From: an uncultured Gemmataceae bacterium
Lineage (GTDB): Bacteria > Planctomycetota > Planctomycetia > Gemmatales > Gemmataceae
Length of the DNA stretch: 64,000 nucleotides
Assembly (NCBI GenBank): GCA_963750165.1
Contig: CAVVPN010000012.1
Span: 1,024,001-1,088,000 of the forward strand
Direction of reading: 5' to 3'
The position numbers and the translations under genes are program-made. The notes below the pieces were generated by a model that saw only the letters and a list, made by a program, of their open reading frames with translations, was not told where the DNA came from and did not search any database. How positions within the stretch are numbered: the stretch's first letter is position 1; each line of letters begins with the position of its first letter. Below are positions 13,233-53,000 of this stretch, piece after piece.

Positions 13233-14062
13233 TCAAGCGCCGAGCGCGTCCCGCAGCGACTTCAGCTGCCCCGCCAAATCGGCGACCTGGCCAGCCAGGT
13301 CCGACGCCCCAGGCGCCGACAACCGCTCCGCCAGCTGCGTCAGCTGCTGCCGCAACTCCGCGACCTGTCCGCTCAGCTTGCCGACCTCCGCCAGCGCCTC
13401 GGCCAACCGCGTCTCCAGCGCGGCAACGCGATCCTCGCGCGGCGCCTGGGCGCCGCCGCGGGCCGGCTGACCGGCGCACCCTCGTCCACATCCTGACCCG
13501 GGGCGCCGCCGGCGTGCTGGCCGCGCAGCCGCTCCAGTTCCTTCGGCGGGTGGAAGCCGTGCGTCAACATGGTGCCGCGGCGGCCCTCCGGCGACAAGTA
13601 CACGACCAGGTTGCGCTGCGCCAGCGGCTTGAGCCGGGTCCGCAGCGTGTCGAGGTCGTTGATCGGCTCCATGCGGCTGGCGCGGGCGCGCAACTCGCCC
13701 TCAGTCTGCGGACCCCGCAGCAGCAGCTCGCCGAGAATGGCGATTTCCACCTTGTCGATCTGCCATTTCTCATAAACCAGATGCCGCCAGCGTTCGACGC
13801 GGCCGCCGGTGATGCGCATGACCAGTCCGCCCTGCTGGAGCGCTGCCAGGGCCTCCTCCACGTCCAGGTCGTTGAGGGTCAACAGCGGTTCACGGTTGGT
13901 CTTCTGGTTGCTGCCGGTCACCAGGGCGTTGACGCTGAGCGGATACGCTTCCGGCGTGGTCTTGGCCTTCTCGATCAGCACGCCGAGCACGCGGCGCTCA
14001 TTAACGGTCAGCGGCGGCCAGGGGCCACTCGCCGGGGCGGCCGCGGGGGTGGGAGCGGACAT
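13233..14062 (-). CDS. DUF480/YceH-family protein, frameshift near 13455
   Basis: ERRVLGVLIEK..TTPEAYPLSVNAL...NQKTNREP and LLLRGPQT; the coiled-coil tail continues in a shifted frame to a stop at 13233. Confidence 0.85.
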
Positions 14063-14071
14063 GATCGGTCC

Positions 14072-14854
14072 TCACGCGATGGTCTTCGCCAGCTGCCGCA
14101 CCAGGGCGGCCCCGTCGCGCACGGCGCGAAGCGGGTCGGCCAGGGTCGGGTTCAGCTCCAGGGTCACTGCTCCCTGATAATCGCCCAGTTCCAGCATCGT
14201 CAAGAGCGCTTCGAGCATCTCCTGCGTCAATCGGCCCGTCAGCAGCGGCCAGTGCAGATCGTCCACGCTGTCGTTGTCGTCCAGGTGGACGTGCCCCAGC
14301 CGTGCCCCCGCCAGCAGTGCCGCCTGGGCCGGCTCCTCTTCGCTAATCAGGCAGTGGCCCACGTCAAGCAGCAACAGCAGGTTGTCGTGGTTCACGCGCT
14401 CCAGCCAGGCCAGCGCCGCGGCGGACGACGGCAGGGCGCGGCCCGGGATCGGTTCGACGCACAGCGGCATCATCCGGCGGCCAGCGTGGTCCGCGAGCAG
14501 ACACACCGCGTCGCGGTAGCGGGCCAGCCCCTGCGGACTGCCGTCGCGGCCGGCGACAACGTAGCACTGTCGCGCCCCGAGCAACGCCGCGTCCTCGACC
14601 TGCTGCTGCATCGCCTCCAGGGTGTCGCGGCGCGTCACCAGTCCCGGGGCGTCGAGCGCCCAGTCGGGCGGCAGCCCCTTGCCGATGGCGGCGCTCCAGA
14701 CGAGCAGACCGCTGTCGGCCAGAGCGTCGAGCTGGTCCGCGGGCCGGGCGGCCTCGGCGACCACGTCCACGTGACGGAAGCCGAGTTGCCGCGCGTGCTG
14801 CAGGGCGGTCGTGAAGGGCACCGGCAGCGAGGAGAGCAGGACAGACAGGTGCAT
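14072..14854 (-). CDS. Sugar phosphate isomerase/epimerase (xylose-isomerase-like TIM barrel)
   Basis: CVEP, LLDVGH, HVHLDDN..DLH, VTLE. Confidence 0.85.
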   Translation of the reverse strand: MHLSVLLSSLPVPFTTALQHARQLGFRHVDVVAEAARPADQLDALADSGLLVWSAAIGKGLPPDWALDAPGLVTRRDTLEAMQQQVEDAALLGARQCYVVAGRDGSPQGLARYRDAVCLLADHAGRRMMPLCVEPIPGRALPSSAAALAWLERVNHDNLLLLLDVGHCLISEEEPAQAALLAGARLGHVHLDDNDSVDDLHWPLLTGRLTQEMLEALLTMLELGDYQGAVTLELNPTLADPLRAVRDGAALVRQLAKTIA

Positions 14855-14859
14855 GGGAA

Positions 14860-15549
14860 TCACTCGTGAGCGCCGGGCGACGGCAAGGCGAGGGTGTGCG
14901 GCAGATCGACCTCCGAGCCGGCGCGGCGCAGGGCGGCCAGGTGTCCCTGCAGCGCCCACCAGTCGGCCAGCGTATCGACATCATACCACGGCGGCAACAG
15001 CGCCAGCCGGCCGGACACGCCCTCCAGCCGCGCGACCGTCTCGGCCAGGACGCGCGGCCCGCCCCAGCTGATCCCGTCGAAGATGGGCGGTACGCGGCGG
15101 GCGCAGCCGAGCAGGTAATAGCCGCCGTCGGTTGCGGGACCGAGCACCACGTCGGCACCGCCCTCCAGCGCGCGAAACGCCTGCTCAACGAAGGCGACGG
15201 GCAGCGTCGGGCTGTCGGCACCGACCAGCACGACCGCGGCGGCGCCGTCGGCGTAAAGGTCGCGCACCAGCGCTGCCATGCGCTGTCCCAGGTCGCCGTC
15301 GGCCTGCGGCGTCAGCGCGAAGGCGGGGGCGGCCGCGGCGAAGAAGGCGCGGGCCTCGGTGTCGTCCGGGGCGTGGGCGAGGACGCGGCGGGCGTCCACG
15401 GCGGCGAGGCGGCGGCTGAGGTCGCGCAGGAAGGCGTCGGCGACGGCGGCGGCCCAGGCGGGCGTGGTGTCGGCGGCGAGGCGCGTCTTGACGGCCCCGG
15501 GCCGGGGCCATTTCGCCAACAGGGCCAGGGCTCGCGGCGGGTGGCTCAT
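14860..15549 (-). CDS. DUF2064/TIGR04282-family glycosyltransferase-like protein
   Basis: AKWPRPGAVKTRL, QADGDLGQRM, GADSP, GPATDGGYYLLG, YDVDT. Confidence 0.9.
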   Translation of the reverse strand: MSHPPRALALLAKWPRPGAVKTRLAADTTPAWAAAVADAFLRDLSRRLAAVDARRVLAHAPDDTEARAFFAAAAPAFALTPQADGDLGQRMAALVRDLYADGAAAVVLVGADSPTLPVAFVEQAFRALEGGADVVLGPATDGGYYLLGCARRVPPIFDGISWGGPRVLAETVARLEGVSGRLALLPPWYDVDTLADWWALQGHLAALRRAGSEVDLPHTLALPSPGAHE

Positions 15550-15632
15550 GGCGTCATTGTAGCGGCGAACGTGGACATCGCCGCCGGGAGCGGTTACACT
15601 CCCCCTCGTCTGACCAACAGCATGAGGGTAGC

Positions 15633-16595
15633 ATGACCGTTGAACAGCACCTGAATATGTTCGCCGGGCTCAAGGTCGTCAATTACGCGCCGGGCGGCGG
15701 TTTCCTCGAAGGCCAACCTGGCGCAGTCGCCTACCACTTGGGGGGCCTGGAGTATGGCAGGGCCAAACACCCGTTACTGGAAGTTCTGGGCGCCTATCTG
15801 AGTGAGCCGGGCGCCGCGGCCACCACAGCGCTGGTCATCGGTGCCTGGGACTACGACGACATGAACGACTGGGGCGCCGGCAACCGCGACGTGGTGCAGG
15901 CACTCGTGGCCGCCCGCGACCGGTTGCCACAGTTGCGGGCGCTGTTCCTGGGCGACATCATCCGCGAGGAGTGCGAAATCTCCTGGATTCAACAGGGTGA
16001 TGTCAGCCCACTGTTGGCGGCCTATCCCGACCTGGAAGAGTTCCGTATCCGAGGCGTTGGCGTCCTGTCCTTCGGTCAACTGCGGCACGGCCGGCTGCGC
16101 TCCCTGGCTGTCGAGAGCGGCGGACTGCCCGCGAACATCCTGGAGGAAATCTGGGCGGCCGAGCTGCCGCAGCTGGAGCACCTGGAGTTGTGGCTGGGCG
16201 CGGCCGGGTACGGCGGCATTGACAACGTCGCCCCGCTGGAGCCGTTGCTATCCGGTCGCCTCTTTCCCGACCTGCGCTATCTCGGGCTGTGCAACAGCGC
16301 CATCGCCGACGAGGTCGCCAAAGCTGTGGTCGCTTCCCCGTTGCTGGAGCGCATGCGCGTGCTCGACCTGTCGCTGGGCAACCTCACCGACGAGGGCGCC
16401 CGCGCCCTGCTCGCCAGTCCCGCCGTCCACCGCCTGGAAATGCTGGACATCCATCACCATTACGTCTCGATGGAAGTGGTCCTGGAGCTGAACCGGCTGG
16501 GCATCGGGCTGGACGCCACCGACCTGAAGGAGCCGGATACTTACACTCACAACGATGTCACCCACACTGAACGCTACAACGCCCACTCGGAGTGA
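15633..16595 (+). CDS. STM4015-family LRR (RNI-like) protein, paralogue A
   Basis: ALVIGAW, LRALFLGDI..EECEISWI, ESGGLP, LEHLELWLG, LDLSLG; ends RYNAHSE. Confidence 0.8.
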   Translation: MTVEQHLNMFAGLKVVNYAPGGGFLEGQPGAVAYHLGGLEYGRAKHPLLEVLGAYLSEPGAAATTALVIGAWDYDDMNDWGAGNRDVVQALVAARDRLPQLRALFLGDIIREECEISWIQQGDVSPLLAAYPDLEEFRIRGVGVLSFGQLRHGRLRSLAVESGGLPANILEEIWAAELPQLEHLELWLGAAGYGGIDNVAPLEPLLSGRLFPDLRYLGLCNSAIADEVAKAVVASPLLERMRVLDLSLGNLTDEGARALLASPAVHRLEMLDIHHHYVSMEVVLELNRLGIGLDATDLKEPDTYTHNDVTHTERYNAHSE

Positions 16596-16613
16596 AGCGC
16601 CGGGGCCGACTGC

Positions 16614-17423
16614 ATGATCGACACCAACGCCGTGATCGGCACCCATGACGTGCTGCTGCTGACGCTGGACACGCTCCGCTACGACGTGGCCCAGGACTGT
16701 CTGCGCCACGGCCGCACACCGCACCTGGCCGCGCTGCTGCCGGGCGGCGCCTGGGAGGAGCGACACTCACCGGGCAACTTCACCTTCGCCGCCCACGCCG
16801 CGTTCTTCGCCGGCTTCCTGCCGACACCCGCCCGCCCCGGCCGTCACCCGCGCCTGTTCGCCGTCCGTTTCGATGGTAGCGAAACCACCACCGCCCACAC
16901 CTGCGTCTTCGACGCGCCCGACATCGTGACGGGCCTGGCTGGGCGCGGCTACCATACGGTCTGTGTCGGCGGTGTCGGCTTCTTCAACCTGCGTGGGCCG
17001 CTTGGCTCGGTGCTGCCGGGACTGTTCGCCGAGCGCGTCTGGCGGCCGGAGTTTGGCGTCACCGACCCGGACTCCACCGCCCATCAGGTCGCCTGGATTT
17101 GCGGTCGATTGCGTGAGCTGCCCGCCGAGCGTCGCCTGTTCCTGTTCCTGAACGTCTCCGCCCTGCATCAACCGAATGCGTGCTACCTGCCCGGCGCCAT
17201 CGCGGACTCGCCCGCCACACAGGCCGCGGCCCTGGCCTACGTGGACCGCGCGCTGCCGCCGCTGTTCGACGCGCTGCGCCGCCGCAGTCCGCTGCTGACG
17301 GTGGTCTGCTCCGACCACGGCACCGCCTATGGCGAGGGCGGCTACCACGGCCACCGCCTGGCCCACTCCGTTGTCTGGACCGTTCCCTACGCCGAGTTCC
17401 TTCTGTCCCAGGTGCCGTCATGA
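16614..17423 (+). CDS. STM4013/SEN3800-family hydrolase (alkaline phosphatase/sulfatase superfamily)
   Basis: LDTLRYD, HSPGNFT, LHQP, SDHG and GHRLAH metal-site motifs. Confidence 0.85.
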   Translation: MIDTNAVIGTHDVLLLTLDTLRYDVAQDCLRHGRTPHLAALLPGGAWEERHSPGNFTFAAHAAFFAGFLPTPARPGRHPRLFAVRFDGSETTTAHTCVFDAPDIVTGLAGRGYHTVCVGGVGFFNLRGPLGSVLPGLFAERVWRPEFGVTDPDSTAHQVAWICGRLRELPAERRLFLFLNVSALHQPNACYLPGAIADSPATQAAALAYVDRALPPLFDALRRRSPLLTVVCSDHGTAYGEGGYHGHRLAHSVVWTVPYAEFLLSQVPS

Positions 17424-18739
17424 CCGCGACCGCCGCGCACCCGCTGACCACTGGCTCCCCCTACCAGGGCTATGTCTACGGCTACCCCCACAAGACCGCT
17501 TACCGCCCGCTGTCTGAGCCGGTGCCGCTGCGCGACCTGTGGGCCGCCGAGTCGCGCTCCGCCCTGCTGCTGTACCTGCATGTGCCGTTCTGCGAAATGC
17601 GCTGCGGCTTCTGCAACCTGTTCACCCAGGCCCGGCCGCGGGAACGGGTGGTGTCCGACTACCTCGACGCGCTGGCGCGGCAGGTGGGACAGGTCCGGGA
17701 CGCCCTGGGCGAAACCTCATTTGCCCGGCTGGCTGTCGGCGGCGGTACGCCCACCGCCCTGGACCTCAGCGGCCTGAAACGACTGTTCGACCTGGCCGAG
17801 TCACTGCTCGGCGGCCCCGTGACCATGCCCGCCTCGGTCGAGACTTCTCCCGAGACGGTGGCGCCCGAGAAACTGTCGCTGCTGCGCGACCGTGGTGTCC
17901 GCCGGGTCAGCATCGGCGTGCAGAGCTTTGTCGAAACCGAGACATCCGTGGTCGGTCGGCCGCAGCGTCCCGACACGGTCAGGGCCGCCCTGGACCGCAT
18001 TCGCACTGTTGGTTTCCCGGTCCTGAACATCGACCTCATCTACGGCCTGCCGGGACAGACGGTGACAACGTGGCTGGACTCGGTGCGCGCCGCCCTGAAG
18101 TATCGGCCGGAGGAACTGTATCTGTACCCGCTCTACGTCCGGCCCGGGACGGGGCTGGGCAGTTCGCGGCGCACCTGGGACGACCTGCGTTTGGCGTGCT
18201 ACCGTGCCGGGACGGAATTGTTGCGCGGCGCCGGTTATCGCCAGGTGTCGATGCGGATGTTCCAGGCAGCGCACGCCCCACACGACGGCCCAGCCTACTG
18301 CTGTCAGGGCGACGGCATGGTCGGTCTGGGCTGCGGCGCCCGCTCGTACACCACCGGCCTGCACTACGCCGACGAGTACGCCGTCCGTCCCGAAGGTGTC
18401 CGGGCCATCCTCGGCGACTATGTCTCCCGGTCGGCGGCGGCGTTCACGGTTGCGACGCACGGCTTCCGCCTGGACACTGACGAGCAGCGCCGCCGCTTTG
18501 TGCTGCTATCCCTGCTCCAGTGCGACGGCCTCGACCTGGACGCCTACCGGCGACGGTTCGGCGGAGACGCCCTGTCCGACCTGCCAGCACTCGGAGATCT
18601 GGAGACACTCGGACTGGCCCAACACCAGGGGACTCGGCTGCGACTCACGAACGCGGGCCTGGAACGCTCGGACGCCATTGGTCCCTGGCTGTACTCGGAC
18701 ACGGTGCGAACGCGGATGGAGGAATACGTGTGGCGCTGA
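17420..18739 (+). CDS. STM4012-family HemN-like radical SAM protein
   Basis: YPHKTAY, LYLHVPFCEMRCGFC, GGGTPT, RVSIGVQSF, NIDLIYGLPGQ; ATGA overlap with the upstream gene. Confidence 0.85.
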   Translation: MTATAAHPLTTGSPYQGYVYGYPHKTAYRPLSEPVPLRDLWAAESRSALLLYLHVPFCEMRCGFCNLFTQARPRERVVSDYLDALARQVGQVRDALGETSFARLAVGGGTPTALDLSGLKRLFDLAESLLGGPVTMPASVETSPETVAPEKLSLLRDRGVRRVSIGVQSFVETETSVVGRPQRPDTVRAALDRIRTVGFPVLNIDLIYGLPGQTVTTWLDSVRAALKYRPEELYLYPLYVRPGTGLGSSRRTWDDLRLACYRAGTELLRGAGYRQVSMRMFQAAHAPHDGPAYCCQGDGMVGLGCGARSYTTGLHYADEYAVRPEGVRAILGDYVSRSAAAFTVATHGFRLDTDEQRRRFVLLSLLQCDGLDLDAYRRRFGGDALSDLPALGDLETLGLAQHQGTRLRLTNAGLERSDAIGPWLYSDTVRTRMEEYVWR

Positions 18740-19623
18740 ACCTGTCGATCCTGTACCGCGGGCCGCTGTCGAGCTGCAACTACGACTGCGGCTACTGTCC
18801 CTTCGCCAAGCGTCGGGAGACGGCCACGGAGTTGTCCCGGGACCGCGCCGCCCTCGTGCGGTTCGTGGACTGGGTCGCGGCGCGCCCGGCAGACGACCGG
18901 CTCGGCATTCTCTTTACACCGTGGGGCGAGGCCCTGACGCGGCACTGGTATCGGGACGCCCTGACACGGCTGAGCCATTTGCCACAGGTGGTGCGCGTGG
19001 TGGCACAGACGAACCTGGCGTGCGGCCTGGGCTGGGTGGCGGCGTGCGACCGGGAGCGGCTGGCGCTGTGGGCCACGTACCATCCCGGACAGGTGGCACG
19101 GCCGCGATTCCTGGCGAAGTGCCTGCGGTTGCATGGCCTGGGAGTGCGCTTCAGTGTCGGCGTCGTCGGCCTGCGCGAGCACTTCGCCGACATCGACGCG
19201 CTGCGTCGCGAGCTGCCCGGGGGCGTGTACCTGTGGGTCAACGCTTACAAGGACCGTCCCGACTACTATGCCGTCGGCGAGGCCGAGTGGCTGGCCGACA
19301 TCGATCCGCTGTTCCCGGTCAACAATGTCCGCCACCCGAGTCGGGGTCGGCCGTGTCGGGCGGGACACTCGGCCGTCTCGGTGGACGGCGACGGCACCGT
19401 GCGCCGCTGTCACTTCATCCGGGAACCACTGGGCAACCTCTACGAGCCGGAGTTCGAGCGGGTGTTGACCGAGCGACTGTGTACGAACGCGACGTGTGGC
19501 TGTCACATCGGCTATGTCCACCTGGACGCTTTGGGACTGTACTCGGTGTTCGGCGCCGGTGTGCTGGAGCGCATCCCGGCGCGGCCGCTGTGGCGCTCGC
19601 CCCTGCCGGTGACGGCGGGGTGA
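18730..19623 (+). CDS. STM4011-family radical SAM protein with Cys-rich (SPASM/twitch-like) C-terminus
   Basis: YRGPLSSCNYDCGYCPFAK, FTPWGEAL, CRAG...DGTVRRCHF...LGNLY...CTNATCGCH; GGAGGA RBS, overlaps the upstream stop. Confidence 0.85.
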   Translation: MALNLSILYRGPLSSCNYDCGYCPFAKRRETATELSRDRAALVRFVDWVAARPADDRLGILFTPWGEALTRHWYRDALTRLSHLPQVVRVVAQTNLACGLGWVAACDRERLALWATYHPGQVARPRFLAKCLRLHGLGVRFSVGVVGLREHFADIDALRRELPGGVYLWVNAYKDRPDYYAVGEAEWLADIDPLFPVNNVRHPSRGRPCRAGHSAVSVDGDGTVRRCHFIREPLGNLYEPEFERVLTERLCTNATCGCHIGYVHLDALGLYSVFGAGVLERIPARPLWRSPLPVTAG

Positions 19624-19662
19624 TGCCCGGGGACGAATCCGCAACCATTCGGAGGAGGACAC

Positions 19663-20640
19663 ATGACCATCGGATACCACCTGGACGACTTCGACGACCG
19701 GCCGGTGCGCTGGTTCGACCCCAAGGCGAAGCGCAAGGGCGGCAAACCCTGCGTCTATCGCGTCGGCGGCATGGATTTTATCAAGTCGCAGTACGGCGAC
19801 GGTGAGTACGAGTTCCCCGAGCTGCTCGACCTGTTCCTGGCGGCGCACGGTGGCCCGGATCTGACGGCCCTGGTCATCGGCGCCTGGAACTATGGCGACA
19901 TGTGCGACGGCCTGAACGGTCGCGGGGCGGCGGACATGGTCGAGGCGCTGGTGGCCAACCGTAAACGCATGCCGAACCTGCGTGCCCTGTTCCTGGGGGA
20001 CATCACCTACGAGGAGTGTGAGATCTCCTGGATCAGCTACGGTGATATTTCGGCGCTACTGCCGGCCTTCCCAAAGCTGGAGGAGTTCCACATCCGGGGC
20101 GCGTCCAACCTGACCTTCGGCACCATCAAACACGGCAAGCTACGCACCTTCGTCATCGAGAGCGGCGGCCTGCCCGAACCGCTGCTGCGCGAGGTGTGGG
20201 CGGCCAAAGTACCGAAGCTGGAGCACCTGGAACTGTGGCTCGGCTCGCCGGACTACGGCGGCATCGACACGGTCGAGCCGCTGGCGCCGCTGCTGTCGGG
20301 CAAGCTGTTCAAGAAGCTGAAGTACCTCGGCCTGGTCAACTCCATGATCACCGACGCCGTGGCGAAGGCCCTGGTCGCATCCCCACTGATCGCGCGGCTG
20401 GAATCCCTCGACCTGTCCAACGGCACCCTGAGCGACGCGGGCGCCGAGGCCCTGCTCGGCTGCCCGGCCGTACACAAGTTGAAAATGCTCGACCTGTGCC
20501 ATCACTACCTGTCCGAGCCGTTCGTCGAGGAACTGCGGAAGTTGCCTGGCGAGGTGGACGTGGACGACCCCTGCGAAACCGAGTTCGAGACTTACGAGGG
20601 TCGCACCGAGGTCCTGCGCTACAACGTCGTCTCGGAGTGA
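19663..20640 (+). CDS. STM4015-family LRR protein, paralogue B
   Basis: Same motifs as paralogue A; ends RYNVVSE; RBS GGAGGACACATG. Confidence 0.8.
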   Translation: MTIGYHLDDFDDRPVRWFDPKAKRKGGKPCVYRVGGMDFIKSQYGDGEYEFPELLDLFLAAHGGPDLTALVIGAWNYGDMCDGLNGRGAADMVEALVANRKRMPNLRALFLGDITYEECEISWISYGDISALLPAFPKLEEFHIRGASNLTFGTIKHGKLRTFVIESGGLPEPLLREVWAAKVPKLEHLELWLGSPDYGGIDTVEPLAPLLSGKLFKKLKYLGLVNSMITDAVAKALVASPLIARLESLDLSNGTLSDAGAEALLGCPAVHKLKMLDLCHHYLSEPFVEELRKLPGEVDVDDPCETEFETYEGRTEVLRYNVVSE

Positions 20641-20664
20641 CCTCACCACCATCCAGGAGGACAC

Positions 20665-21639
20665 ATGGCCTTTAATCAACACCTGAAAACCTTCACCGGC
20701 CTGCCGGTAAAATGGTTCGACCCCAAAACGAAACGCAAGCCCGAGAAGCCCTGCGTCTATCACCTCGGCGGCTTCGACTACGTCAAGTCGGAATGCTCCG
20801 AGGGGGAGTACGAATTCGCTGAACTGCTCGACCTGTTCCTGGCCGCGCACGGCGGCAAGGATCTGACCGCCCTGGTCATCGGCGCCTGGAACGAGAGCGA
20901 CTCGCCGATGCTGGACGAGGGCGGGGCCGGCGACATGGTGGAGGCCCTGGTCGGCAATCGCCAGCGCATGCCCAACCTCCGCTCCCTGTTCGTCGGGGAC
21001 GTCACCTCGGAGGAGTGTGAGGTTTCCTGGATCGGCTACGGCGACCTGTCGGCGCTGCTACCGGCCTTCCCGAAGCTGGAGACGTTCGGCATCCGCGGCG
21101 CGGCCAACCTGTCCTTCGGCAAGATCAAGCACGGTAACCTGCGCTCGTTCACCGTCGAGAGCGGCGGCCTTCCCGAGCCGCTGTTGCGGGCACTGTGGAA
21201 AGCGGAGTTGCCGAAACTGGAGCACCTGGAACTGTGGCTGGGCTCGCCAAACTACGAGGGCATCGACACGCCCGACCCCCTCAAGCCGCTGCTCTCGGGC
21301 AAGCTGTTCAAGAAGCTGAAATACCTCGGCCTGCGCAACAGTGAGATTGCCGACCTGGTGGCGAAGGCCGTCGCTGAGTCTCCCCTGCTGGAACGGCTGC
21401 ACACCCTGGACCTGTCCCTCGGCAGTCTCACGGAGGCCGGTGCCGAGGCCCTGATCGTCAGCCCGCGCCTGCGCAAGTTGAAGAAACTCGACCTGCACCA
21501 CCACTACATCTCGCCGCCGTTCGTCGAGTACCTGAAAAAGCTGCCGCTCGACGTGGACCTGAGTGAGACGCGCAAACCCGACATCAGCACCTACGGCGAC
21601 ACCACCTATGTCGATCGCTACATCGCCGTCGATGAGTGA
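20665..21639 (+). CDS. STM4015-family LRR protein, paralogue C
   Basis: Closely similar to paralogue B; ends RYIAVDE; same GGAGGACACATG start context. Confidence 0.8.
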   Translation: MAFNQHLKTFTGLPVKWFDPKTKRKPEKPCVYHLGGFDYVKSECSEGEYEFAELLDLFLAAHGGKDLTALVIGAWNESDSPMLDEGGAGDMVEALVGNRQRMPNLRSLFVGDVTSEECEVSWIGYGDLSALLPAFPKLETFGIRGAANLSFGKIKHGNLRSFTVESGGLPEPLLRALWKAELPKLEHLELWLGSPNYEGIDTPDPLKPLLSGKLFKKLKYLGLRNSEIADLVAKAVAESPLLERLHTLDLSLGSLTEAGAEALIVSPRLRKLKKLDLHHHYISPPFVEYLKKLPLDVDLSETRKPDISTYGDTTYVDRYIAVDE

Positions 21640-22798
21640 CGGTCGTCTGGTCGTCATCGGCCATCCCGGACACAAGCGCGTCACGCTGTTCCAGGAAGCG
21701 CTGTCCCGCCGTGGACTGCCGCCGGCGTTCGTCGTCGCCTGGCGCGACCTGCTCACCGGGCAGGCGGACCTGCGGCAGGTGGTCGGAGATGGAGCCTGGG
21801 TGCGGATCGAGTCGCCCGGCCAGGACTTCGAAGTGGAGCGGTTGCTACTGGCCGCCGGAGCCGCGACAGCGGAGACGGAGGACACAGACGCCGCATTCCT
21901 CCCGGCCGATGCGGCCCTGCGGCTGACGCCCGACCGTGGCCGCCTGCGCTGTCCGCGGCAATGGTATCGCGGCTTCCGTGCCGTGCTGCGGCGCCTGTCC
22001 CGGGAACTGGGCGGACACTCCGGCGTCCGCTGGCTGAGTCATCCGGAGGACATCATCACGCTGTTCGACAAGCGTCGCTGCCAGGAGCGCTTCGCCGAGG
22101 CGGGCCTGCCGGTGCCGGCGCGGTTGGGCGCGGTACGATCCTTCGCTGCACTACTGGCCCGGATGGAGGAGACGGGATTGCGGCGGCTGTTCGTCAAGCT
22201 GGCGTGTGGCTCGTCGGCGTCGGGAGTGGTCGCGTTCCGCACCGGCGCCGGGCGGATGCAGGCGATCACCACGGTGGAACTGGTGCAGCACGACGGCGAG
22301 CTGCGCCTGTACAACACGCGGCGCATCCGCACTTACGAGTCCGCCGCCGACATCGTTCCCCTGATCGACACACTTTGCCGCGAGGGTGTGCAGGTGGAAG
22401 AATGGATTCCGAAGGCGGCCTTCGAGGGACAGACCTTTGACCTGCGTGTCCTGGTCATCGGCGGCACCGTCCGTCATGTCGTGCCGCGACTGAGCCGGCA
22501 CCCGATGACGAACCTGCACCTGCTCAACCGTCGCGGCGACCCGTCCCGGCTGCGCGAGCAGATCCCCACGGAGCACTGGGAGGCGGCCCTGGAGACGTGC
22601 CGCCGCGCCGCCGCCGTGTTCCCTGGATGTCTGCACGTCGGCGTCGATCTGCTGTTCACGCCCAGTTTCCGACGGCACGCGCTTCTGGAGGCCAACGCCT
22701 TCGGCGACCTGCTGCCGGGTATCGTCTGTGATGGGTTGAGCACGCACGACGCGGAGCTGGCGGCCCTGTTTGTTGGGGAGAAGTTGGACATCAATTGA
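21632..22798 (+). CDS. STM4014-family ATP-grasp ligase
   Basis: RIESPG, FDK, FVKLACGSSASGV, VEEWIPK, FDLRV, MTNLHL, GVD, LLEANAFGD; start overlaps the paralogue C stop. Confidence 0.8.
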   Translation: MSDGRLVVIGHPGHKRVTLFQEALSRRGLPPAFVVAWRDLLTGQADLRQVVGDGAWVRIESPGQDFEVERLLLAAGAATAETEDTDAAFLPADAALRLTPDRGRLRCPRQWYRGFRAVLRRLSRELGGHSGVRWLSHPEDIITLFDKRRCQERFAEAGLPVPARLGAVRSFAALLARMEETGLRRLFVKLACGSSASGVVAFRTGAGRMQAITTVELVQHDGELRLYNTRRIRTYESAADIVPLIDTLCREGVQVEEWIPKAAFEGQTFDLRVLVIGGTVRHVVPRLSRHPMTNLHLLNRRGDPSRLREQIPTEHWEAALETCRRAAAVFPGCLHVGVDLLFTPSFRRHALLEANAFGDLLPGIVCDGLSTHDAELAALFVGEKLDIN

Positions 22799-22857
22799 CC
22801 CCGTTTACGTTTCGCGCGGACTCTGCCCGCGCGAAACGTAACCAGGGCGCGAGCGCT

Positions 22858-23931
22858 TCAAGTCTCGATGAGCGGACGATAGTCGTCGGGGTCGTCGATG
22901 CCAGCCGTCCACGCCGCGGCCTGGCGGCAGGACCGCAGGGCCGGCGGCACGCGCAGGGCGTACTGGCGGCCCGTGGAAGGACACGACACCGAGAGGCAGA
23001 CCAGTGGCTCGTCTCCCGGCAAGGGGACGAGCAACAGTCGGCGCTCGCCGCCCGGGTCGCGGTCCTGGTCGAGCACCTCGGCGTTGACGTGCTGGAAGAA
23101 CCACTCGAAGCCGACGCGCTCCAGCATGACACGGCGCACCTCGGCGTTGGGCTCGGACAGGATCTCGTCGCTGCTGAGCGTCTCGGGCTTGAAGGCGACG
23201 CGCTCGCTCACGGCGACGCCGCGCCAGCGCAGTGGCACATCTCGGAGCGACCGCGGCAGCCGGGTGAGGCCGCTGCCGCCGACCTCGATCCAGGAGGTGG
23301 TGGTCAGGTTGCCCGGCAGCTCGGTGATGCCAGCACAGTCGCGCAGGTCGAGTTGAGCAACCTGGCGGACACCGGGCGGTAGTCGGGTGAAGCTGGTGCC
23401 CGACAGGTTCAGGTGGCCATGCCGCACCGACACATCTTTCGGCCAGCGCCGCAGCCCCCGGCAACCTTGCAGGTCCAGGAAACAGACGGCCAGCCCCTCG
23501 GGCAACTCCTCCAGGGCCGTGCAGCCGCTCAGCACCACCGAACCGACGCGCAGGTTCGCCGGCAGCCGGACCAGGTGCCGGGAGTCGCGCAGGTCGAGGC
23601 GGAACTCCACACGCAGACCGTCGGGCAGGCTGACGAGGCCGGACTCCGGGGCGGTGATCTCGTAGCAGCGCAGTCCCGCCGGCAGTGTGCTCAGACGGGG
23701 ACAGTTGCGGATTTCCAGGTGCCGGACCTGGAGCCCACGCGGCAGCGCCTTCAGGTCGGGGCAGTCGAGCAAGCGCAGCCGCCGAACCTTCAACCCGGTG
23801 GGCAAGCTCAACCCCTCGACGCCCTGGAACTCCAGGTAGCCCTCAACCTCAACGCCGTCGGGAGCGGTGCCGGCGAGGATGCGTTCGTGTGCCTCGGCGG
23901 CGGTCATCGTGCGGTTCACGGTGGCGGACAT
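22858..23931 (-). CDS. LRR/beta-solenoid repeat protein with C-terminal DUF6745 domain
   Basis: About eight LxxLPxGLxV..LDL repeats, then WRGV, NAEVRRVMLE, CPSTGRQYALRVPP, AAAWT, YRPLIET; RBS CAGGAGG before the ATG at 23931. Confidence 0.75.
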   Translation of the reverse strand: MSATVNRTMTAAEAHERILAGTAPDGVEVEGYLEFQGVEGLSLPTGLKVRRLRLLDCPDLKALPRGLQVRHLEIRNCPRLSTLPAGLRCYEITAPESGLVSLPDGLRVEFRLDLRDSRHLVRLPANLRVGSVVLSGCTALEELPEGLAVCFLDLQGCRGLRRWPKDVSVRHGHLNLSGTSFTRLPPGVRQVAQLDLRDCAGITELPGNLTTTSWIEVGGSGLTRLPRSLRDVPLRWRGVAVSERVAFKPETLSSDEILSEPNAEVRRVMLERVGFEWFFQHVNAEVLDQDRDPGGERRLLLVPLPGDEPLVCLSVSCPSTGRQYALRVPPALRSCRQAAAWTAGIDDPDDYRPLIET

Positions 23932-23951
23932 GGCGGCCTCCTGGTTCGGGG

Positions 23952-24248
23952 TCAATCGCGGACGGTGCGGATCGCTTCGGGACTGTATTCGCGCTGCTGC
24001 CAGACCCGGTAGGTGCCGCGCCGCAGCGTGATCGGGCCGTGCTCCTCGTGGGCGACCGTCGCCAGCGTGGCGGTCACTTCCAGGTAGAGCGAACCGGCGT
24101 GGGCGAACATCCGGGCGGCGCCGGTTTCCTTGATGCGGTGGCTATGGCCGGTCACCTCGCCCTCGGCCAGCACGCAGTGCGGCCGGGGTTGCGCCGCGGC
24201 GGGGATGGATGGAACGGCGGCGATGAAGACGTCTCCCTGGCGCCACAT
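23952..24248 (-). CDS. Small His-rich 'RQGDV' protein (DUF6745 partner)
   Basis: MWRQGDV, LAEGEVTGHSHRI, HEEH, GTYRVWQQREY; directly upstream of the DUF6745 gene. Confidence 0.75.
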   Translation of the reverse strand: MWRQGDVFIAAVPSIPAAAQPRPHCVLAEGEVTGHSHRIKETGAARMFAHAGSLYLEVTATLATVAHEEHGPITLRRGTYRVWQQREYSPEAIRTVRD

Positions 24249-24445: not shown

Positions 24446-24700
24446 ATGGGCCTGTTCGATTTTTTGTTCGGGCGCCGTGGCGGTGGCGGCGACGGCTCCA
24501 GCCCAGAGAAGGCGGTCGTCGTCGGCAGTGTGGCCGAGGAGTATCGGTGGATGCAGCGCCACCACCCCGGGTTCCAGCCGGGCATGCAGGCGCTGTCACA
24601 CATCGACGGCAAGCCCTATGACGTGCTCACCTGGCGGAACGAGCGCGGGGAGGAGCGGACGGTGTACTTCGACATCTCGCAGTTCTTCGGCCGATTCTAG
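24446..24700 (+). CDS. Small conserved-looking hypothetical protein (84 aa)
   Basis: GGDGSS..AVV, EEY.W, YDVL and YFDISQFFG look like a compact domain; GAGG RBS. Confidence 0.65.
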   Translation: MGLFDFLFGRRGGGGDGSSPEKAVVVGSVAEEYRWMQRHHPGFQPGMQALSHIDGKPYDVLTWRNERGEERTVYFDISQFFGRF

Positions 24701-24718
24701 CGCGGCTGGCCTTGGGGT

Positions 24719-24813
24719 GTAGCGGAAGTCGCCAGACTTCCGTGCGGCGCTGCCCGGAAGTCTGGCGACTTCCGCTACCCCAACCTGCCCGGAAGTCTGG
24801 CGACTTCCGCTAC
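24719..24813. repeat. GTAG-type REP cluster (3 copies of GTAGCGGAAGTCGCCAGACTTCCG)
   Basis: One forward copy (24719-24742) and two reverse copies (24755-24778, 24790-24813), all identical; GTAG plus a hairpin. Confidence 0.85.
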
Positions 24814-24904
24814 CCCAAGCCGAATAAAAAGCCGCTGGCACCGGCTCCATCGGTTTGGTTAGAATGTTGCAATCCTACCCGCAGCGTTGTGGACGGAGAG
24901 CCGC

Positions 24905-46620: not shown

Positions 46621-47071
46621 TTCATCCAGCTCCAGCGGAGTGCGGAGGGGAAAAAGTCCCGGCGACCGTCGGGACAATGAGCCATCGGTTCGACTTGGGG
46701 GATGGTCGCCCCCGTGGATCAAAAAGATGAAAAAATCATTTGACCGCCCTCACATTTCGGTTAAACTCTCATGTTTAATAGCCCAACTTCTGGGTTTTCG
46801 GACACCGCTACCCGCCCCTGCTACTGTTCAGGCGGACACCGAAGGCAACTCCTTCCGCATCCCTTGCCTCTTCCGGCAAGGCCGGAGATGCGTGGTCTTC
46901 GCGCCCAACGCCGGGGCCGGTCGCTGACCGCCCAGTGCGGCTTCCAGTCCCGTTCCTATAAAAAGCCCGTCGGGGTCTCCCGATCATCTGACCCCGACCG
47001 ACGACGCAAGCATAATTTCCGGTCCCCTGTTCCGGGGCCATTGTCTCATCATTCGTCCTGAGGTGCCACCC

Positions 47072-50000
47072 ATGTCCTGGACTCGCTGGTTTCGCGGAGT
47101 GCAGCGCAAGAGCAAGCGTCCCACCGGCCATCGCCGGCCCCAACCGAGCCGACCCGCCCTGTTTCTGGAGTCGCTGGAAGAACGCACCGTCCCGTCCGTC
47201 AACGCCGCCTCCGCGACCGACCCGAATTTGCTGTCCGACACCGCCGCCGGCTTCACGCTCAACGGCCAGCTGGCCAACAGCATCGAGGTCACCGGCGCCG
47301 CCGCCGTCAGCAGCAACGGCCGCTACGTCGTCTTCACCGACGCCGCCGCCAACCTCGCCACCGGCCAGGTCATGAACTCGAAGACCACCACCAGCGTCTT
47401 CCTGTACGACCGCTCCACCGGCACCACCACCCTCGTCAGCCACGCCGCCAGCTCCACCGCCACGACGGCCGACGGCACCTCCGAGAACGCCGCCATCAGC
47501 GCCGACGGCAACTGGGTCGCCTACGTCAGCAACGGCGACAACCTCGTCAGCGGCCAGCAGCTGGCCGACGACACCTACAACCTGACGGTCTACGGCTACA
47601 CCGGCGGCACCTTCACGCTCAGCTACGGCGGCCAGACCACCGCGCCCATCGCCTACAACTTCGACGGGCCGACCGAACTGGCCAACATCCAGGCGGCCCT
47701 CGACAACCTGTCCACGGTCGGCCCCGGTAACTCCGTCGTCGCCCAGGGCAACCTCAACAGCCTGTTCACCGTCACCTTCACCGGCGCGCTCGCCCACGGC
47801 GCCTCCACCGGCACGCTCACCGGCCACGGCTCCGGCCTGACCGGCGGCAGCCTCTACGCCGACTTCGCGCTGACCGGCGCCCACAACACGTCCTACGGCA
47901 GCCAGTACAACGTCTTCCTCTACAGCGTCCAGACCGGCCAGACCACCCTCGTCAGCCACTACGCCGCCGACCAGGGCGCCGGCTACCAGACGACCGCGAG
48001 CGACGGCACCAGCGGCATCCTCAGCGGCTTCGGCGGCAGCGACAGCAGCGTGGCCAGCCAGACCACCAGCGTCTCGCTCAGCGCCAACGGCCAGTACGTC
48101 GCCTACCTGAGTACCGGCACCCATCTGGTCAGCGGCCAGGTCGAGGGCTTCTTCAACCCCGTGGACGGCGGCGGCATCCAGGGCCGCGGCAACGTCTTCG
48201 TGTACGACCGCACCACCGACACCAACTTCCTCGCCAGCCACGACATCAGCTCGCCGACCAACAGCGCCGGCCTGCCGATCGAGCCGAGCGACAACACCTG
48301 CTACGTCGCCACCATCGACCCGACCGGCACCAACGTCGCCTTCACCAGCCTGTCGGCCAGCCTGGTCCAGGGCGAAACGGATGGCAGTTCCGGCCAGGAG
48401 CCGGGCGACTTCCCGCAATTCTTCCTCGCCCAGCGCCCCGCCAGCGGCACCTGGGCGGGCGAGACCACCTATCTGGTCAGTCACCAGGTGAGCCTCGCCA
48501 CCCTGGACTCCCTCCCCAACACCAGCGGGCCGCTCGACTACCCCGCCCCGGTGTTCTCGGCGGACGGCCACTGGCTCGTGTACATGTCGGACCACGCCAT
48601 CGTCACCAGTCCGCTGACGCCCGGCGCCGGCATGGGCGACAACTACTACCTCTACGACACCACCCAGCCGACCTCCGGCTACAACAACACGCTCATCACG
48701 CACACGCCCGGCAACGCGACCCAGGTCGGCAACGCCGGCGACGACTCCTTCACCGCCTACACGGCCCCGACCGCCGCCGTCAGCGACAGCGACACCGCCC
48801 CCTACGTCGCCTTCTACAGCGCTGCCACCAACCTGGAAAGCACCGCCACCTCGCCGGGCTACAACGCCTACCTGTTCAGCGCCGCCACCGGCAACGTCAC
48901 GCTGCTGTCGCACCAGAGCATTCCGACCTCGGCCTTCCCCACCTTCAAGTCCATGCCGCTGACGATCAGCATCAGCGGCAACGGCCGCTACGTCGGCTAC
49001 ATCGGCTCGGCCGCCGCGGATGTCTCCGGCACCACCAACATCAACACCTGGTCGGGCACCAGGGGCTTTGACGCCATCGTCTACGACCAGGGCCCCAACA
49101 TCGGCGTGTCCTCGCCGGCCTATATCCTGGCCAGCCACGCCTACGCCTCGCCCACCACGACGGGCAACGCCGAGGCGTACGCCCCCGTCATCAGCGACGA
49201 CGGCAGTACGATGCTCTACCTCGACGACTCCTCGAACCTGCTGCCGACCACCATCAACAGCCACCCCGGCCAGGACCTCAACGACGCCGTGGCCGGCGAC
49301 GGCACCGACCTGTACGCCTACAGCCTGAGCACGGCGACCGGCTACACGCCGCTGGCGGCCGTCGGCACCAACGCCACGGTGTCGCTGCGCAACGCCAACC
49401 TGCCGAGCCTGACCGCCAATGGCATGAGCGAGATGTCGCCGGAGAACGCCGTCAGCAGCAACGGCCAGTACACCGTCTTCTTCAGCAACGCCCCGAACCT
49501 GGCGCCGAACGAGAACGACACCGCCCTGAGCCTGAACGTCTACCTGTACAACCGCAGCGCCCCCAGCGGCACCAACCCGGTGACGCTTATCAGTCACGCC
49601 TACGGTTCGCCGGCCACCACCGCCAACGGCATCTCGACCGACGCGGTCATCAGCGCCGACGGCTCGACGATCCTGTTCTACAGCACCGCCACCAACCTCA
49701 TCAGCGGCGGCACCAGCGGCACGCAGCTATACCTGTATGACAACAACCCCAACGACGCCGCCTACGGCACCGTCAAGCTGGTCAGCCATGCGTCCACGGG
49801 CGACACGACGGGCTCCAACGGCACCGTGCCGGTCAGCCCCGGCTACCCGCCGACGACGCTGCTGTACGACAACGCCACCGCCCAGGGCCTGCCGCTGCCG
49901 AGCGTCAGCAGCAACGGCCAGTACATCGCCTACCTGAGCAACGCCAGCAACATCACAGGCACTGGCTCCTCTGGTCTGAATGGTTCGATCACGGCGGTCA

Positions 50001-53000
50001 CCGACCCGTTACTCGGCACCGTGAAAATCACCACCACGAGCACGGCCGGCCTGTCCACGGGCATGTCGGTGACGATCGCCAATGCGGGCGGCGTGCCCGA
50101 CATCGACGGCACCTGGACCATTACCCTGGTCAATAGCACCCAGTTCACCCTGAACAGCTCGCTTGGCCTGGGAGAGACCTACACCGGCGGCGGCACCTGG
50201 ACGACGGGCGGCGGCAGCAACACCAACGTCTTCCTGTACGACCGCGCCAACGACGCCACCACGCTGGTCAGCGCCCAAAACGGCACGACGACGAGCGGCA
50301 ACGGCAACGCCAGCACCGTCGCCATCAGCGCCGACGGCAGCACCGTCGCCTTCACCGACAACGCGACGAACCTGCTGAGCACGAGCATCACCACCAGCGG
50401 CGCTCGAGCTGTACGTCTGGAGCCGCATCGCCGACAGCGCGACCGGCCTGACGGCGGGCCAGACGATCCTCGCTAGCCACGCCGCCAGCGGCGCCACCAC
50501 CGCGGCCAGCTTCGGCAGCGGCACGGCCAGCTCGCAGTGGGGTCCGCTGCCGGCGTCGCTGAGCAGCAACGGCGCCTTCGTGGCCTACTACTTCGGCGGT
50601 AACAACCTCGTCACCGGCCAGGCCGGCACCGCCAGCCCGCTCAACGTCTTCCTGTACAACGTCGCGGCCGGCACGAACACGCTGGTCAGCCACACCGCCG
50701 CCAGCGCCACGACGGCCGGCGACAACCCGACCAACAGCAACCTGTACGAGGCGAGCGGCCCGGCCATCAGCGCCAACGGCCAGTACGTCGCCTACGCCAA
50801 CAACTCGACGACGCTGCTGGCCACGGCGCTGACTGGCCAGAACGGCCAGGATAACGTCTATCTGTACAACGCCATGACCGGCACCAACACGCTGGTCAGC
50901 CACGCCGCCGGCTCGGCGACGACGCCGGACGCCAACGGCGGCACCTCGCCGAGCATCAGCAACGATGGCCGCTACGTCAGCTACATCGATTACGCGCTGC
51001 CGAGCAACGTCAGCCAATCGCGGCTGACCGCCACCTTCAGCCCCACCGTCTCGGTGCGCGTGTTCGACTCCCAGGCGTCAGCGACCGCGCAGCCGGCGGC
51101 GGTGGGCCTGGCCTTCGACCCGTCGGAACTGCTCGCGATCGGCGCCACGCTGGCGCCGACGGAGCTGAGCGGCGACGGCACCACGACGGCGTGGGTCGGC
51201 CTGGCCACCAACGCGGCCTTCGGCGTGACCGGCGACCTCAACGGCACCCTGGACGTGTTCGTCACGGCGCCGGCGGCGCCGAGCAACGGCCCGACCAGCG
51301 TGAGCCTGAGCAACACCACCGTCCACGCCGCCCAGCCGATCGGCACCACCATCGGCACGCTGACCGCCACGGACACCAACAGCGGCCAGACGTTCACCTT
51401 CACGCTGACCGGCCCCAACGCCAACCTGTTCACGCTCACCGGCAGCACCCTCACCACCAACACCGTCTTCGCGGTCGGCGTCCCGACCAACATTACTGTG
51501 GGCGTGCACGTCGTGGACACGCTCGGCCTGACGCTGGACACGACCATCATCGTCACCGTGCTGCCGGCGCCGCCGACGAACATCACGTTGAGCAACAGCA
51601 CCATCAACGCGACGCAACCGCTCAACACCACCGTCGGCACGCTGAGCACCACCGACCCGAACGCGGGCCAGAGCTTCACCTACACGGTGACCAGCAACCC
51701 CGCCAACCTGTTCACCATCACGGGCAACACGCTGCAAACCAACACGGTGTTCGCGGTCGGCAGCCCGACCACTTACAGCATCACGGTCACGACGACAGAC
51801 ACGCTGGGGCTGACCTACTCCAAGAATTTCACCATCACCGTCAACCCGGTGGCGCCGACGAACATCACGCTGAGCAACACGACCATCACCGCGGCGCAGC
51901 CGACCGGCACCACCGTCGGCACGCTCAGCACCACCGACCCGAACCCGAACCAGAGTTTCACCTACACGCTGTCCGGCCCCGCCGCCAGCCAGTTCACCAT
52001 CGCCAACACCAACACGCTGCAGACCAACACGGTCTTCTCCGTCGCCACCCCGACCACTTACAGCATCACGGTGACGACGACGGACACGCTGGGCTTGACC
52101 TACTCCAAGAGTTTCACCATCACTGTCAACCCGGCGCCGCCGACGAACATCGCGCTGAGCAACACCACCGTCAGCGCCGCGCAGCCGATCAACACCATCG
52201 TCGGCACGCTCAGCACCACCGACCCGAACCCCAGCCAGAGTTTCAGCTACACATTGACCGGCGCCAACCCCGGCCAGTTCACCATCAGCAATAACACGCT
52301 GCAGACCACCACGGTGTTCGCGGTCGGCGCCCCGACCAATTACAACATCACGGTGCAGACGACAGACACGCTGGGCTTGACCTACTCCAAGACGTTCACC
52401 ATCACCGTCAACCCGGCGCTGCCGACGAACATCGCGCTCAGCAACAGCACCATCGTGGCGGCGCAGCCGACCGGCACCACCGTCGGCACGCTGAGCACGA
52501 CCGACCCGAACGCCGGCCAGAGTTTCACCTACACGCTGACCAACAACGCCAACAACCAGTTCACCCTCTCGAACAACACGCTGCAAACCAATGCGGTGTT
52601 CGCGGTCGGCGCCCCGACCACTTACAGCATTACGGTCCAGACGATGGACACGCTGGGGCTGACCTATTCCAAGACGTTCACCATCACCGTCAACCCGGCG
52701 CTGCCGACGAACATCACGCTCAGCAACAGCACCATCGTGGCGGCGCAGCCGACCGGCACCACGGTCGGCACGCTGAGCACCACCGACCCGAACGCCGGCC
52801 AGAGCTTCAGCTACACGCTGTCCGGCACCGACGCCAGCAAGTTCAGCATCTCGAACAACACGCTGCAAACCAACGTCGTTTTCGCCGTGGGTGCCCCGAC
52901 CACTTACAGCATCACGGTCACGACGACGGACACGCTCGGGTTGACCTATCAGAAGCCGTTCACCATCACCGTCAACCCGGCGCCGCCGACGAACATCGCG

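Follow-up and report, generated by a model that had tools for sequence, protein, structure and literature searches.

An uncharacterised STM4011-STM4015 cassette with three glutamate-tailed leucine-rich repeat proteins and an attached DUF6745/RQGD pair in an uncultured Gemmataceae bacterium

The window analysed in this study is a stretch of 64,000 nt (positions 1,024,001-1,088,000 of CAVVPN010000012.1, assembly GCA_963750165.1) from an uncultured Gemmataceae bacterium. It contains an STM4011-STM4015 cassette, which consists of seven intact co-oriented open reading frames (ORFs) on the + strand (15633-22798), followed by a convergent two-gene unit (22858-24248). The order on the + strand is leucine-rich repeat (LRR) protein, hydrolase, HemN-like enzyme, radical S-adenosylmethionine (SAM) enzyme, LRR, LRR and ligase. 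The STM4013 stop and STM4012 start share an ATGA (17420-17423), the GTG start codon of STM4011 (18730) lies 10 nt within the 3' end of STM4012, and the ATG of STM4014 (21632) overlaps the end of the third LRR gene by 8 nt. The gene set, overlaps, orientation and convergent unit given in a first-pass annotation made from the sequence were borne out by ORF inspection. The coordinates are listed in Table 1. The start of the LRR-DUF6745 gene was chosen as the ATG with an upstream AGGAGG, and its DUF6745 domain (residues 235-357) is C-terminal to the LRR region. The hairpin between the convergent stops is likely the shared terminator of both units; a terminator scan made no call at it. A promoter scan of the 84-bp divergent gap gave a weak signal of two sites against 0.5 expected.

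Table 1. Coordinates of the genes and features at the cassette locus (window positions), with bit scores and family cut-offs where a family model applies
Feature	Position	Strand	Evidence
Sigma-70-like promoter match, weak, in 84-bp divergent gap	15572..15600	+	9/12 matches
STM4015-family LRR protein 1, 320 aa, tail RYNAHSE	15633..16595	+	NF038076 316 bits, cut-off 275
STM4013 alkaline-phosphatase-superfamily enzyme, 269 aa	16614..17423	+	NF038075 408.5 bits, cut-off 250
STM4012 HemN-like radical SAM enzyme, 439 aa, CEMRCGFC	17420..18739	+	NF006067 595.4 bits, cut-off 380
STM4011 radical SAM enzyme, 297 aa	18730..19623	+	NF038073 394.5 bits, cut-off 200
STM4015-family LRR protein 2, 325 aa, tail RYNVVSE	19663..20640	+	NF038076 312 bits, cut-off 275
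STM4015-family LRR protein 3, 324 aa, tail RYIAVDE, immediately 5' of ligase	20665..21639	+	NF038076 310 bits, cut-off 275
STM4014 ATP-grasp enzyme, 388 aa, full catalytic motif set	21632..22798	+	NF038074 417.4 bits, cut-off 175
Hairpin between convergent stops	22799..22847	.	21-nt arms, 90% complementary, 7-nt loop
LRR-DUF6745 protein, 357 aa, ends LIET	22858..23931	-	PF20530 67.6 bits, cut-off 27
RQGD (RQGDV) protein, 98 aa, ends VRD	23952..24248	-	matches phrog_27831, function not annotated there

The STM4011-STM4015 families are named after Salmonella Typhimurium LT2 loci. The family identities proposed at first pass were checked with hidden Markov models, and all seven + strand genes and DUF6745 scored above cut-off, all five cassette families being above their NCBIfam cut-offs. 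This locus differs from the STM4011-STM4015 cassette in its three LRR copies (with stretches of 78% DNA identity between copies 2 and 3), its gene order and the presence of a DUF6745/RQGD pair. The 9.6-Mb genome has a single copy of every enzyme family, of DUF6745 and of RQGD, all of them at this one locus; the grouping is therefore not due to chance. The cassette is real, catalogued and uncharacterised, and occurs here as a variant of seven families, for which a hypothesis that can be tested is put forward below.

Species genomes were scanned with the ligase as anchor, which gave 588 confirmed stretches in 33 of the 64 parts of the collection, and the best 80 were studied. Within 10 kb of the ligase, with contig ends often cutting the flank, these 80 loci contain LRR (77), hydrolase (65), STM4012 (56), STM4011 (51), DUF6745 (18) and RQGD (16). 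They belong to Planctomycetota, Chloroflexota, Cyanobacteria, Acidobacteriota, Armatimonadota, Myxococcota, Deinococcota and others, and the close ligase relatives are labelled Gemmataceae. Among 150 other genomes of the host's family, ligase was found in 31, STM4011 in 34 and hydrolase in 35; ligase, STM4011 and STM4013 occur together in 30 of the 31 ligase-bearing genomes, which are kin and not independent, even when the genes are unlinked. Co-occurrence of the families across phyla, on which the first-pass annotation depended, was thus confirmed. Spread of the ligase is patchy, since only 3 of 301 genomes in a phylum sample (own genome counted) scored above its cut-off. Two blocks of the cassette are often found apart, one being LRR with ligase and the other hydrolase with STM4012 and STM4011. 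LRR genes are multi-copy in 20 of 78 loci and each enzyme is single-copy; mean identity is 0.55-0.64 for the enzymes versus 0.44-0.47 for LRR and ligase. Twelve plasmid-collection records encode the ligase, and two scans confirmed none in viral contigs. No short precursor peptide, protease or exporter recurs among cassette neighbours of at least 70 aa, and the host genes are packed with gaps below 60 nt. PADLOC 2.0 (library of 2023) gave no match for nine of ten locus proteins and a partial radical SAM match only for the tenth.

Some loci have additional neighbours. One that is seen occasionally is a HAD phosphatase (L022:11149-11805, L017, L078, L287:14483-15310). In several planctomycetes (L066, L072, L074, L080, L087) genes known from ternary conflict systems (bpMoxR, ivWA and fvmX7) adjoin the cassette, and MoxR is also beside it in L019 and L040. 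A decayed cassette, in which the ligase is split and LRR and STM4011 are fragmentary, was found at G068:C1:6581568-6582093 (L204).

Analysis of the LRR proteins revealed a conserved C-terminus. Glutamic acid is the last residue in 119 of 131 closed LRR ORFs, and most of the others look broken or divergent. In 114 full-length proteins the tail follows R-[YF]-x-[AST]-[VLH]-x-E, with arginine at -7 in 110, tyrosine or phenylalanine at -6 in 111 and glutamic acid at -1 in 112; no fixed Ser, Thr or Lys nucleophile for a graspetide link is present in these tails. The tail is restricted to cassette LRRs: only the three cassette copies among 33 LRR-like ORFs of the host genome end in Glu, and its 46,844 ORFs contain a single match to the tail pattern outside the cassette. 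Matches in non-LRR proteins (three in the 80 loci, one in the family loci) were not convincing. The LRR gene is directly upstream of the ligase in 90 of 107 cases, 86 of these 90 ending in Glu. Extra domains (WGR, TIGR02996, HEAT-like) are N-terminal, and the tail is at the C-terminus of five out of six long homologues. In the tandem-double proteins P0226 and P0227 the tail is retained by the last copy only and lost from the inner copy. The linker preceding the tail is 25-47 residues long and acidic (net 4.5 in 15 residues). One aconitase-LRR join without a tail (P0230) looks chimeric and was excluded. Nostoc-type loci (L056, L064, L086, L088, L090) contain four to five LRR copies with diverging tails and interleaved WD40 proteins (L090:5233-6462), whose N-terminal ~100 residues resemble the LRR ones by eye. 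A member of the STM4015 family has been solved by structural genomics (PDB 2RA8, Bacteroides fragilis Q64V53; profile E 1.3e-69), for which no functional study was found in the literature searched. It matches the LRR 3 model (Foldseek E 1.8e-19, TM 0.71), with the alignment stopping before the tail.

A second ligase clade (20 members, support 0.999), all from the host's family, is accompanied by a different tail. Type 2 LRRs end in [YF]-[LF]-[YFM]-x-G-D-x-E and have the architecture WGR-TIGR02996-LRR. They are directly upstream of the ligase in 12 of 20 loci and farther away or broken in three; none was seen in five. The tail type therefore changes with the ligase clade while the terminal Glu is constant, and aromatic -6 and Glu -1 are found in both types. 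The type 2 tail and its ligase clade are a single evolutionary change, not many. The clade comprises loci L181-L201 of family genomes (e.g. L199:7608-10195), with three type 2 LRRs in tandem in L195, and no RQGD was found in these genomes. Type 2 ligase and LRR were considered as a self-sufficient unit, and this was rejected since hydrolase and STM4011 occur elsewhere in the same genomes.

Residues D146, K147, K189, D270, R272, R286, D339 and E353 are invariant in STM4014. The DK, K, D-x-R, D and E-x-N motifs, to which the general catalytic roles of ATP-grasp motifs are assigned, are invariant or at least 90% conserved in 77 sequences and kept in both clades. RimK, LysX, cyanophycin synthetase and ITPK1 each match STM4014 weakly. 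The best match to a solved sequence is RimK (E 0.031); the STM4014 sequence TNLHL resembles the SNLH motif, and R272 aligns with RimK R189, whose equivalent is invariant. In RimK, LysX/ArgX and TTL this arginine binds acidic peptides at their C-terminal residue, as described in the accessible part of PMC10375531. An apparent N-terminal fusion on the L192 ligase was rejected as an over-long ORF without family match.

Alignment of 57 STM4013 sequences revealed six invariant residues (D19, T57, H185, D234, H235 and H247). D19, T57 and D234-H235-G236 align with the NPP structure 2gsn, so that the N-terminal Asp, the Thr at the nucleophile position and the D-H-G metal motif of the alkaline phosphatase superfamily are all present. 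Thr57 sits at the NPP nucleophile position and we take it to be the nucleophile. The sulfatase formylglycine motif C/S-x-P-x-R is missing, with F56-T57-x-A-A-H61 in its place. STM4012 has a HemN-like fold and CxxxCxxC as in NosN/NocN and HemN/HemW. Its closest solved sequences are HemN (E 2e-26) and NocN (E 1.5e-21), but it falls under the equivalog cut-offs of both HemN (123.7 versus 324.95) and HemW (146.7 versus 205.4). According to the portion of PMC10114718 available, the usual reaction of HemN-like (class C) radical SAM enzymes is the transfer of a C1 unit to an sp2 carbon. STM4011 contains CxxxCxxC and twitch/SPASM-like C-terminal cysteines (C209, C227, C251, C256, C258). A solved-sequence search with it gave nothing significant. 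Its predicted model (predicted local distance difference test score, pLDDT, 91.9) matches the folds of SkfB (Z 15.7, root-mean-square deviation 3.8, 243 aligned) and BlsE (Z 15.5, deviation 4.1, 264 aligned), so that a peptide enzyme is tied with a nucleoside one; MoaA is also among the top folds (Z 13.8).

The 98-aa RQGD protein has two invariant motifs, GExTGHxH and HxEH, in 17 sequences, and on these motifs it is likely a metal-binding protein. Pfam and NCBIfam scans gave no family for it, a Pfam scan of its 17 members nothing above chance and a solved-sequence search nothing significant; the ESM Atlas gave unnamed clusters only for RQGD and no usable match for the DUF6745 domain. RQGD is fused to DUF6745 in four proteins (P0125, P0192, P0199, P0208). 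In P0148, P0163, P0167, P0169 and P0197 it is C-terminal to ASCH-like or HNH domains. A total of 566 viral stretches encode RQGD; in the best 80 of these DUF6745 is adjacent in 49, and cassette genes are absent within 4 kb in all 80. The phage pair (PF20530/phrog_27831) consists of the same two adjacent genes with the same fixed ends, [EQ][TS] and VxD, but phage DUF6745 proteins mostly carry tetrapeptide or low-complexity repeats in place of LRRs.

The LRR form of the pair tracks the cassette over at least six phyla, is optional there and occupies at least four different positions around it. Analysis of cassette-linked DUF6745 domains placed 41 of 42 in one LRR-type clade, alongside 20 unlinked copies and one viral copy. 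DUF6745 distances track those of ligase, STM4012 and STM4011 as the core genes do mutually (rho 0.67-0.72, 16 loci). In the family sample, where at most 33 RQGD candidates were scored per genome, the six genomes with a strong RQGD match are all ligase-bearing and type 1, five having it within 7 kb; two weak matches are in genomes without ligase. A Chloroflexota class sample, not counting the centre genome, has ligase in 9 of 150 genomes and strong RQGD in eight, all among those nine; six of these look like close kin, with RQGD unlinked. RQGD-anchored metagenome loci have cassette genes in 25 of 80, and in 17 of the 28 having 2.5 kb downstream, counts that are biased upward because the query was built from cassette-linked copies. 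Four plasmid records were inspected: in those of Deinococcus, Streptomyces and Methylobacterium the cassette adjoins DUF6745 and a small hypothetical gene, the latter assigned from its size and location only, and in that of Paenibacillus the cassette has no adjoining pair. A tight link between pair and cassette is weakened by a cyanobacterial order of 151 genomes, with RQGD in 49, ligase in nine, both in six and the two adjacent in one. LRR-type pairs with no cassette gene in the available flank were also seen (L219, L221, L228, L234, L241, L268, L277, L279, L260, L271). The description of the locus as a complete system therefore stands for the intact STM4011-STM4015 cassette and not for the pair, which is optional in cassette loci and, in phages and cyanobacteria, is common where the cassette is absent.

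We tentatively propose, at somewhat below an even chance, that the ATP-grasp enzyme activates the terminal Glu of the LRR protein and ligates to it an amine made or tailored by the hydrolase and the two radical SAM enzymes. STM4014 would phosphorylate the Glu to an acyl-phosphate and join it to the amine. STM4013, STM4012 and STM4011 would probably make or tailor that amine, STM4013 by cleaving or transferring a phosphoester via Thr57 and STM4012 by transferring a SAM-derived C1 unit. As substrate or carrier, the LRR protein would play the part that LysW has with LysX and RpsF with RimK. The adduct may switch or mark the LRR protein, which is WGR-bearing in many homologues, as part of a response to stress or conflict. 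The DUF6745/RQGD pair is predicted to form a two-part accessory, one that is optional. At the level of sequence, Glu ligation would be favoured by the conserved C-terminal motif and its confinement to LRRs of the cassette, the covariation with ligase clade, the two gene blocks, the position of the LRR gene directly upstream of the ligase, the acidic linker, the alignment of R272 with RimK R189, the multi-copy LRRs beside single-copy enzymes and the co-occurrence of the enzymes in genomes where they are unlinked. The suggestion at first pass that the substrate is a cluster-encoded protein is supported in this form and narrowed to a predicted site, the terminal Glu.

Comparison with known systems revealed likenesses and differences. 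In the available text of PMC10433800, the last Glu of LysW, an invariant residue with an acidic stretch, is amide-linked to the substrate; LysX/ArgX and LysW thus resemble this locus in having an ATP-grasp enzyme beside a protein with an acidic stretch and last Glu. The partner here is a 320-aa LRR protein, LysW being a 54-aa zinc protein, and its tails are R-[YF]-x-x-x-x-E or G-D-x-E rather than EDWGE, only the last Glu being common. The STM4014 loop consensus is HGSSASG, unlike the GSWGR defined for LysX in that source, and no kinase, reductase, aminotransferase or release peptidase comes with the cassette. Unlike RimK/RpsF, the likely target is encoded next door and three extra enzymes are present, and nothing points to polyglutamylation.

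Several observations weigh against Glu ligation. No release peptidase recurs among cassette neighbours. The solved-structure matches of STM4014 are all weak (E 0.03 or worse), the inositol phosphate kinase ITPK1 ranks level with RimK or LysX, and the D-x-R motif is general among ATP-grasps. Fixed C-termini also occur elsewhere (RQGD Asp 17/17, DUF6745 Thr 16/19, STM4012 Arg/Lys 45/56). In the AlphaFold monomer model of LRR 3 (mean pLDDT 94.5) the tail is ordered, with a hairpin, in the absence of any partner (pLDDT 96 for 301-320, 82 for 321-324). A free carrier tail would not be expected to look like this, and the Glu may therefore be structural. On this model the tail could serve as a structural plug or contribute to a ligand site. 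By a crude count, the strand face is 19% acidic and 9% basic with tail charge -0.2 in type 1, and 13% acidic and 19% basic with tail charge -2.5 in type 2; face and tail charges thus swap together between types, as expected for a tail that binds its own LRR.

The ordered tail and the charge swap are what would be expected if the enzymes made a free small molecule, a phosphorylated or nucleoside-derived signal, with the LRR protein as its receptor and the folded-back tail completing or plugging the groove through a structural Glu. We regard this as rather unlikely. Conserved strand-face residues (S121, R144, E189, W191, D249, S251), BlsE and MoaA among the top STM4011 folds, the NPP-like hydrolase, the HAD phosphatase adjoining some loci and the ITPK1 match of the ligase are consistent with such a receptor. 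It leaves unexplained why the LRR and ligase genes stay adjacent while the hydrolase and radical SAM block moves away, and why the tail type follows the ligase clade, though shared descent could give both adjacency and tail match.

Another explanation, which we consider improbable, treats the tail as that of a ribosomally synthesised and post-translationally modified peptide: a SAM-derived methylene introduced by STM4012 would join the aromatic residue at -6 and the terminal Glu, STM4011 would add further cross-links and the ligase would cap or cyclise. The two positions involved are those common to both tail types, the presence of several LRR copies for one enzyme set recalls multiple precursors, and SkfB is the top STM4011 fold. 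A precedent is NosN, which in the accessible part of PMC10114718 forms a methylene ester with a Glu carboxyl, linking an indole. NocN is one of the two solved STM4012 matches, but this reflects general HemN likeness and is weaker than the HemN match itself. Furthermore, the neighbours provide no recurring protease or exporter, the tail lacks a fixed graspetide nucleophile and the hydrolase is left without a role. Least probable of all is an ordinary metabolic or cofactor-tailoring pathway with the LRR as non-covalent enzyme scaffold and the DUF6745/RQGD pair as passenger, to which the higher conservation of the enzymes, the absence of the pair from most loci and the lack of a PADLOC defence model are congenial, but the tracking of core genes by DUF6745 distances, the single LRR-type clade and the several positions of the pair are not.

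A possible role in conflict is suggested by context only, namely the WGR fusions, the patchy spread and the phage-borne pair. An extended form, which we think has only a slim chance of being correct, is a novel post-translational switch in which a sensor LRR, often WGR-fused, would hold its C-terminal core in the groove, the ligase, radical SAM enzymes and phosphoesterase would build the adduct, the DUF6745/RQGD metallo-pair would read or remove it, and phages would carry repeat-swapped pairs as mimics or counter-measures.

Genes flanking the cassette were also inspected. The divergent operon upstream (window 13373-15549, - strand) encodes a TIGR04282 glycosyltransferase, a xylose-isomerase-like protein and DUF480; the glycosyltransferase and epimerase were rejected as partners since neither recurs in neighbour clusters. 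Downstream, an 84-aa ORF (24446-24700, + strand) with a weak DUF4919 match was rejected as a cassette part since it has no homologue in the 80 cassette loci. A palindrome resembling repetitive extragenic palindromes, with 33-nt inverted arms and a perfect 34-nt direct repeat, is located at 24716-24818. Farther along (47063-58067, + strand), PD40 and cadherin-repeat proteins of 1137 and 2495 aa are encoded, and long antisense ORFs within these genes matched no family.

The literature was searched on locus tags, family accessions, DUF6745 and the domain combination, and no functional study was found, supplementary tables and most subscription papers being outside the search; this agrees with the view at first pass that no function has been assigned. 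The search gave nothing relevant on TIGR02996 or on Ma-LMM01 gp174/gp175. Iyer 2009, on ATP-grasp contexts (PMC3268129), may cover the STM4011-STM4015 neighbourhood. In the parts of PMC3844500 and PMC12413039 available, STM4011-STM4015 genes are listed in tables.

Hence, five named families spread across many phyla, including two radical SAM families, are without a function in the literature searched. The Glu tail gives a simple handle on cassette function, and the second ligase-tail type constitutes a natural specificity swap. If the proposal is true, the cassette would represent new radical and ligase chemistry on the C-terminus of a folded protein, and a widespread, unstudied phage gene pair would be tied to a host pathway.

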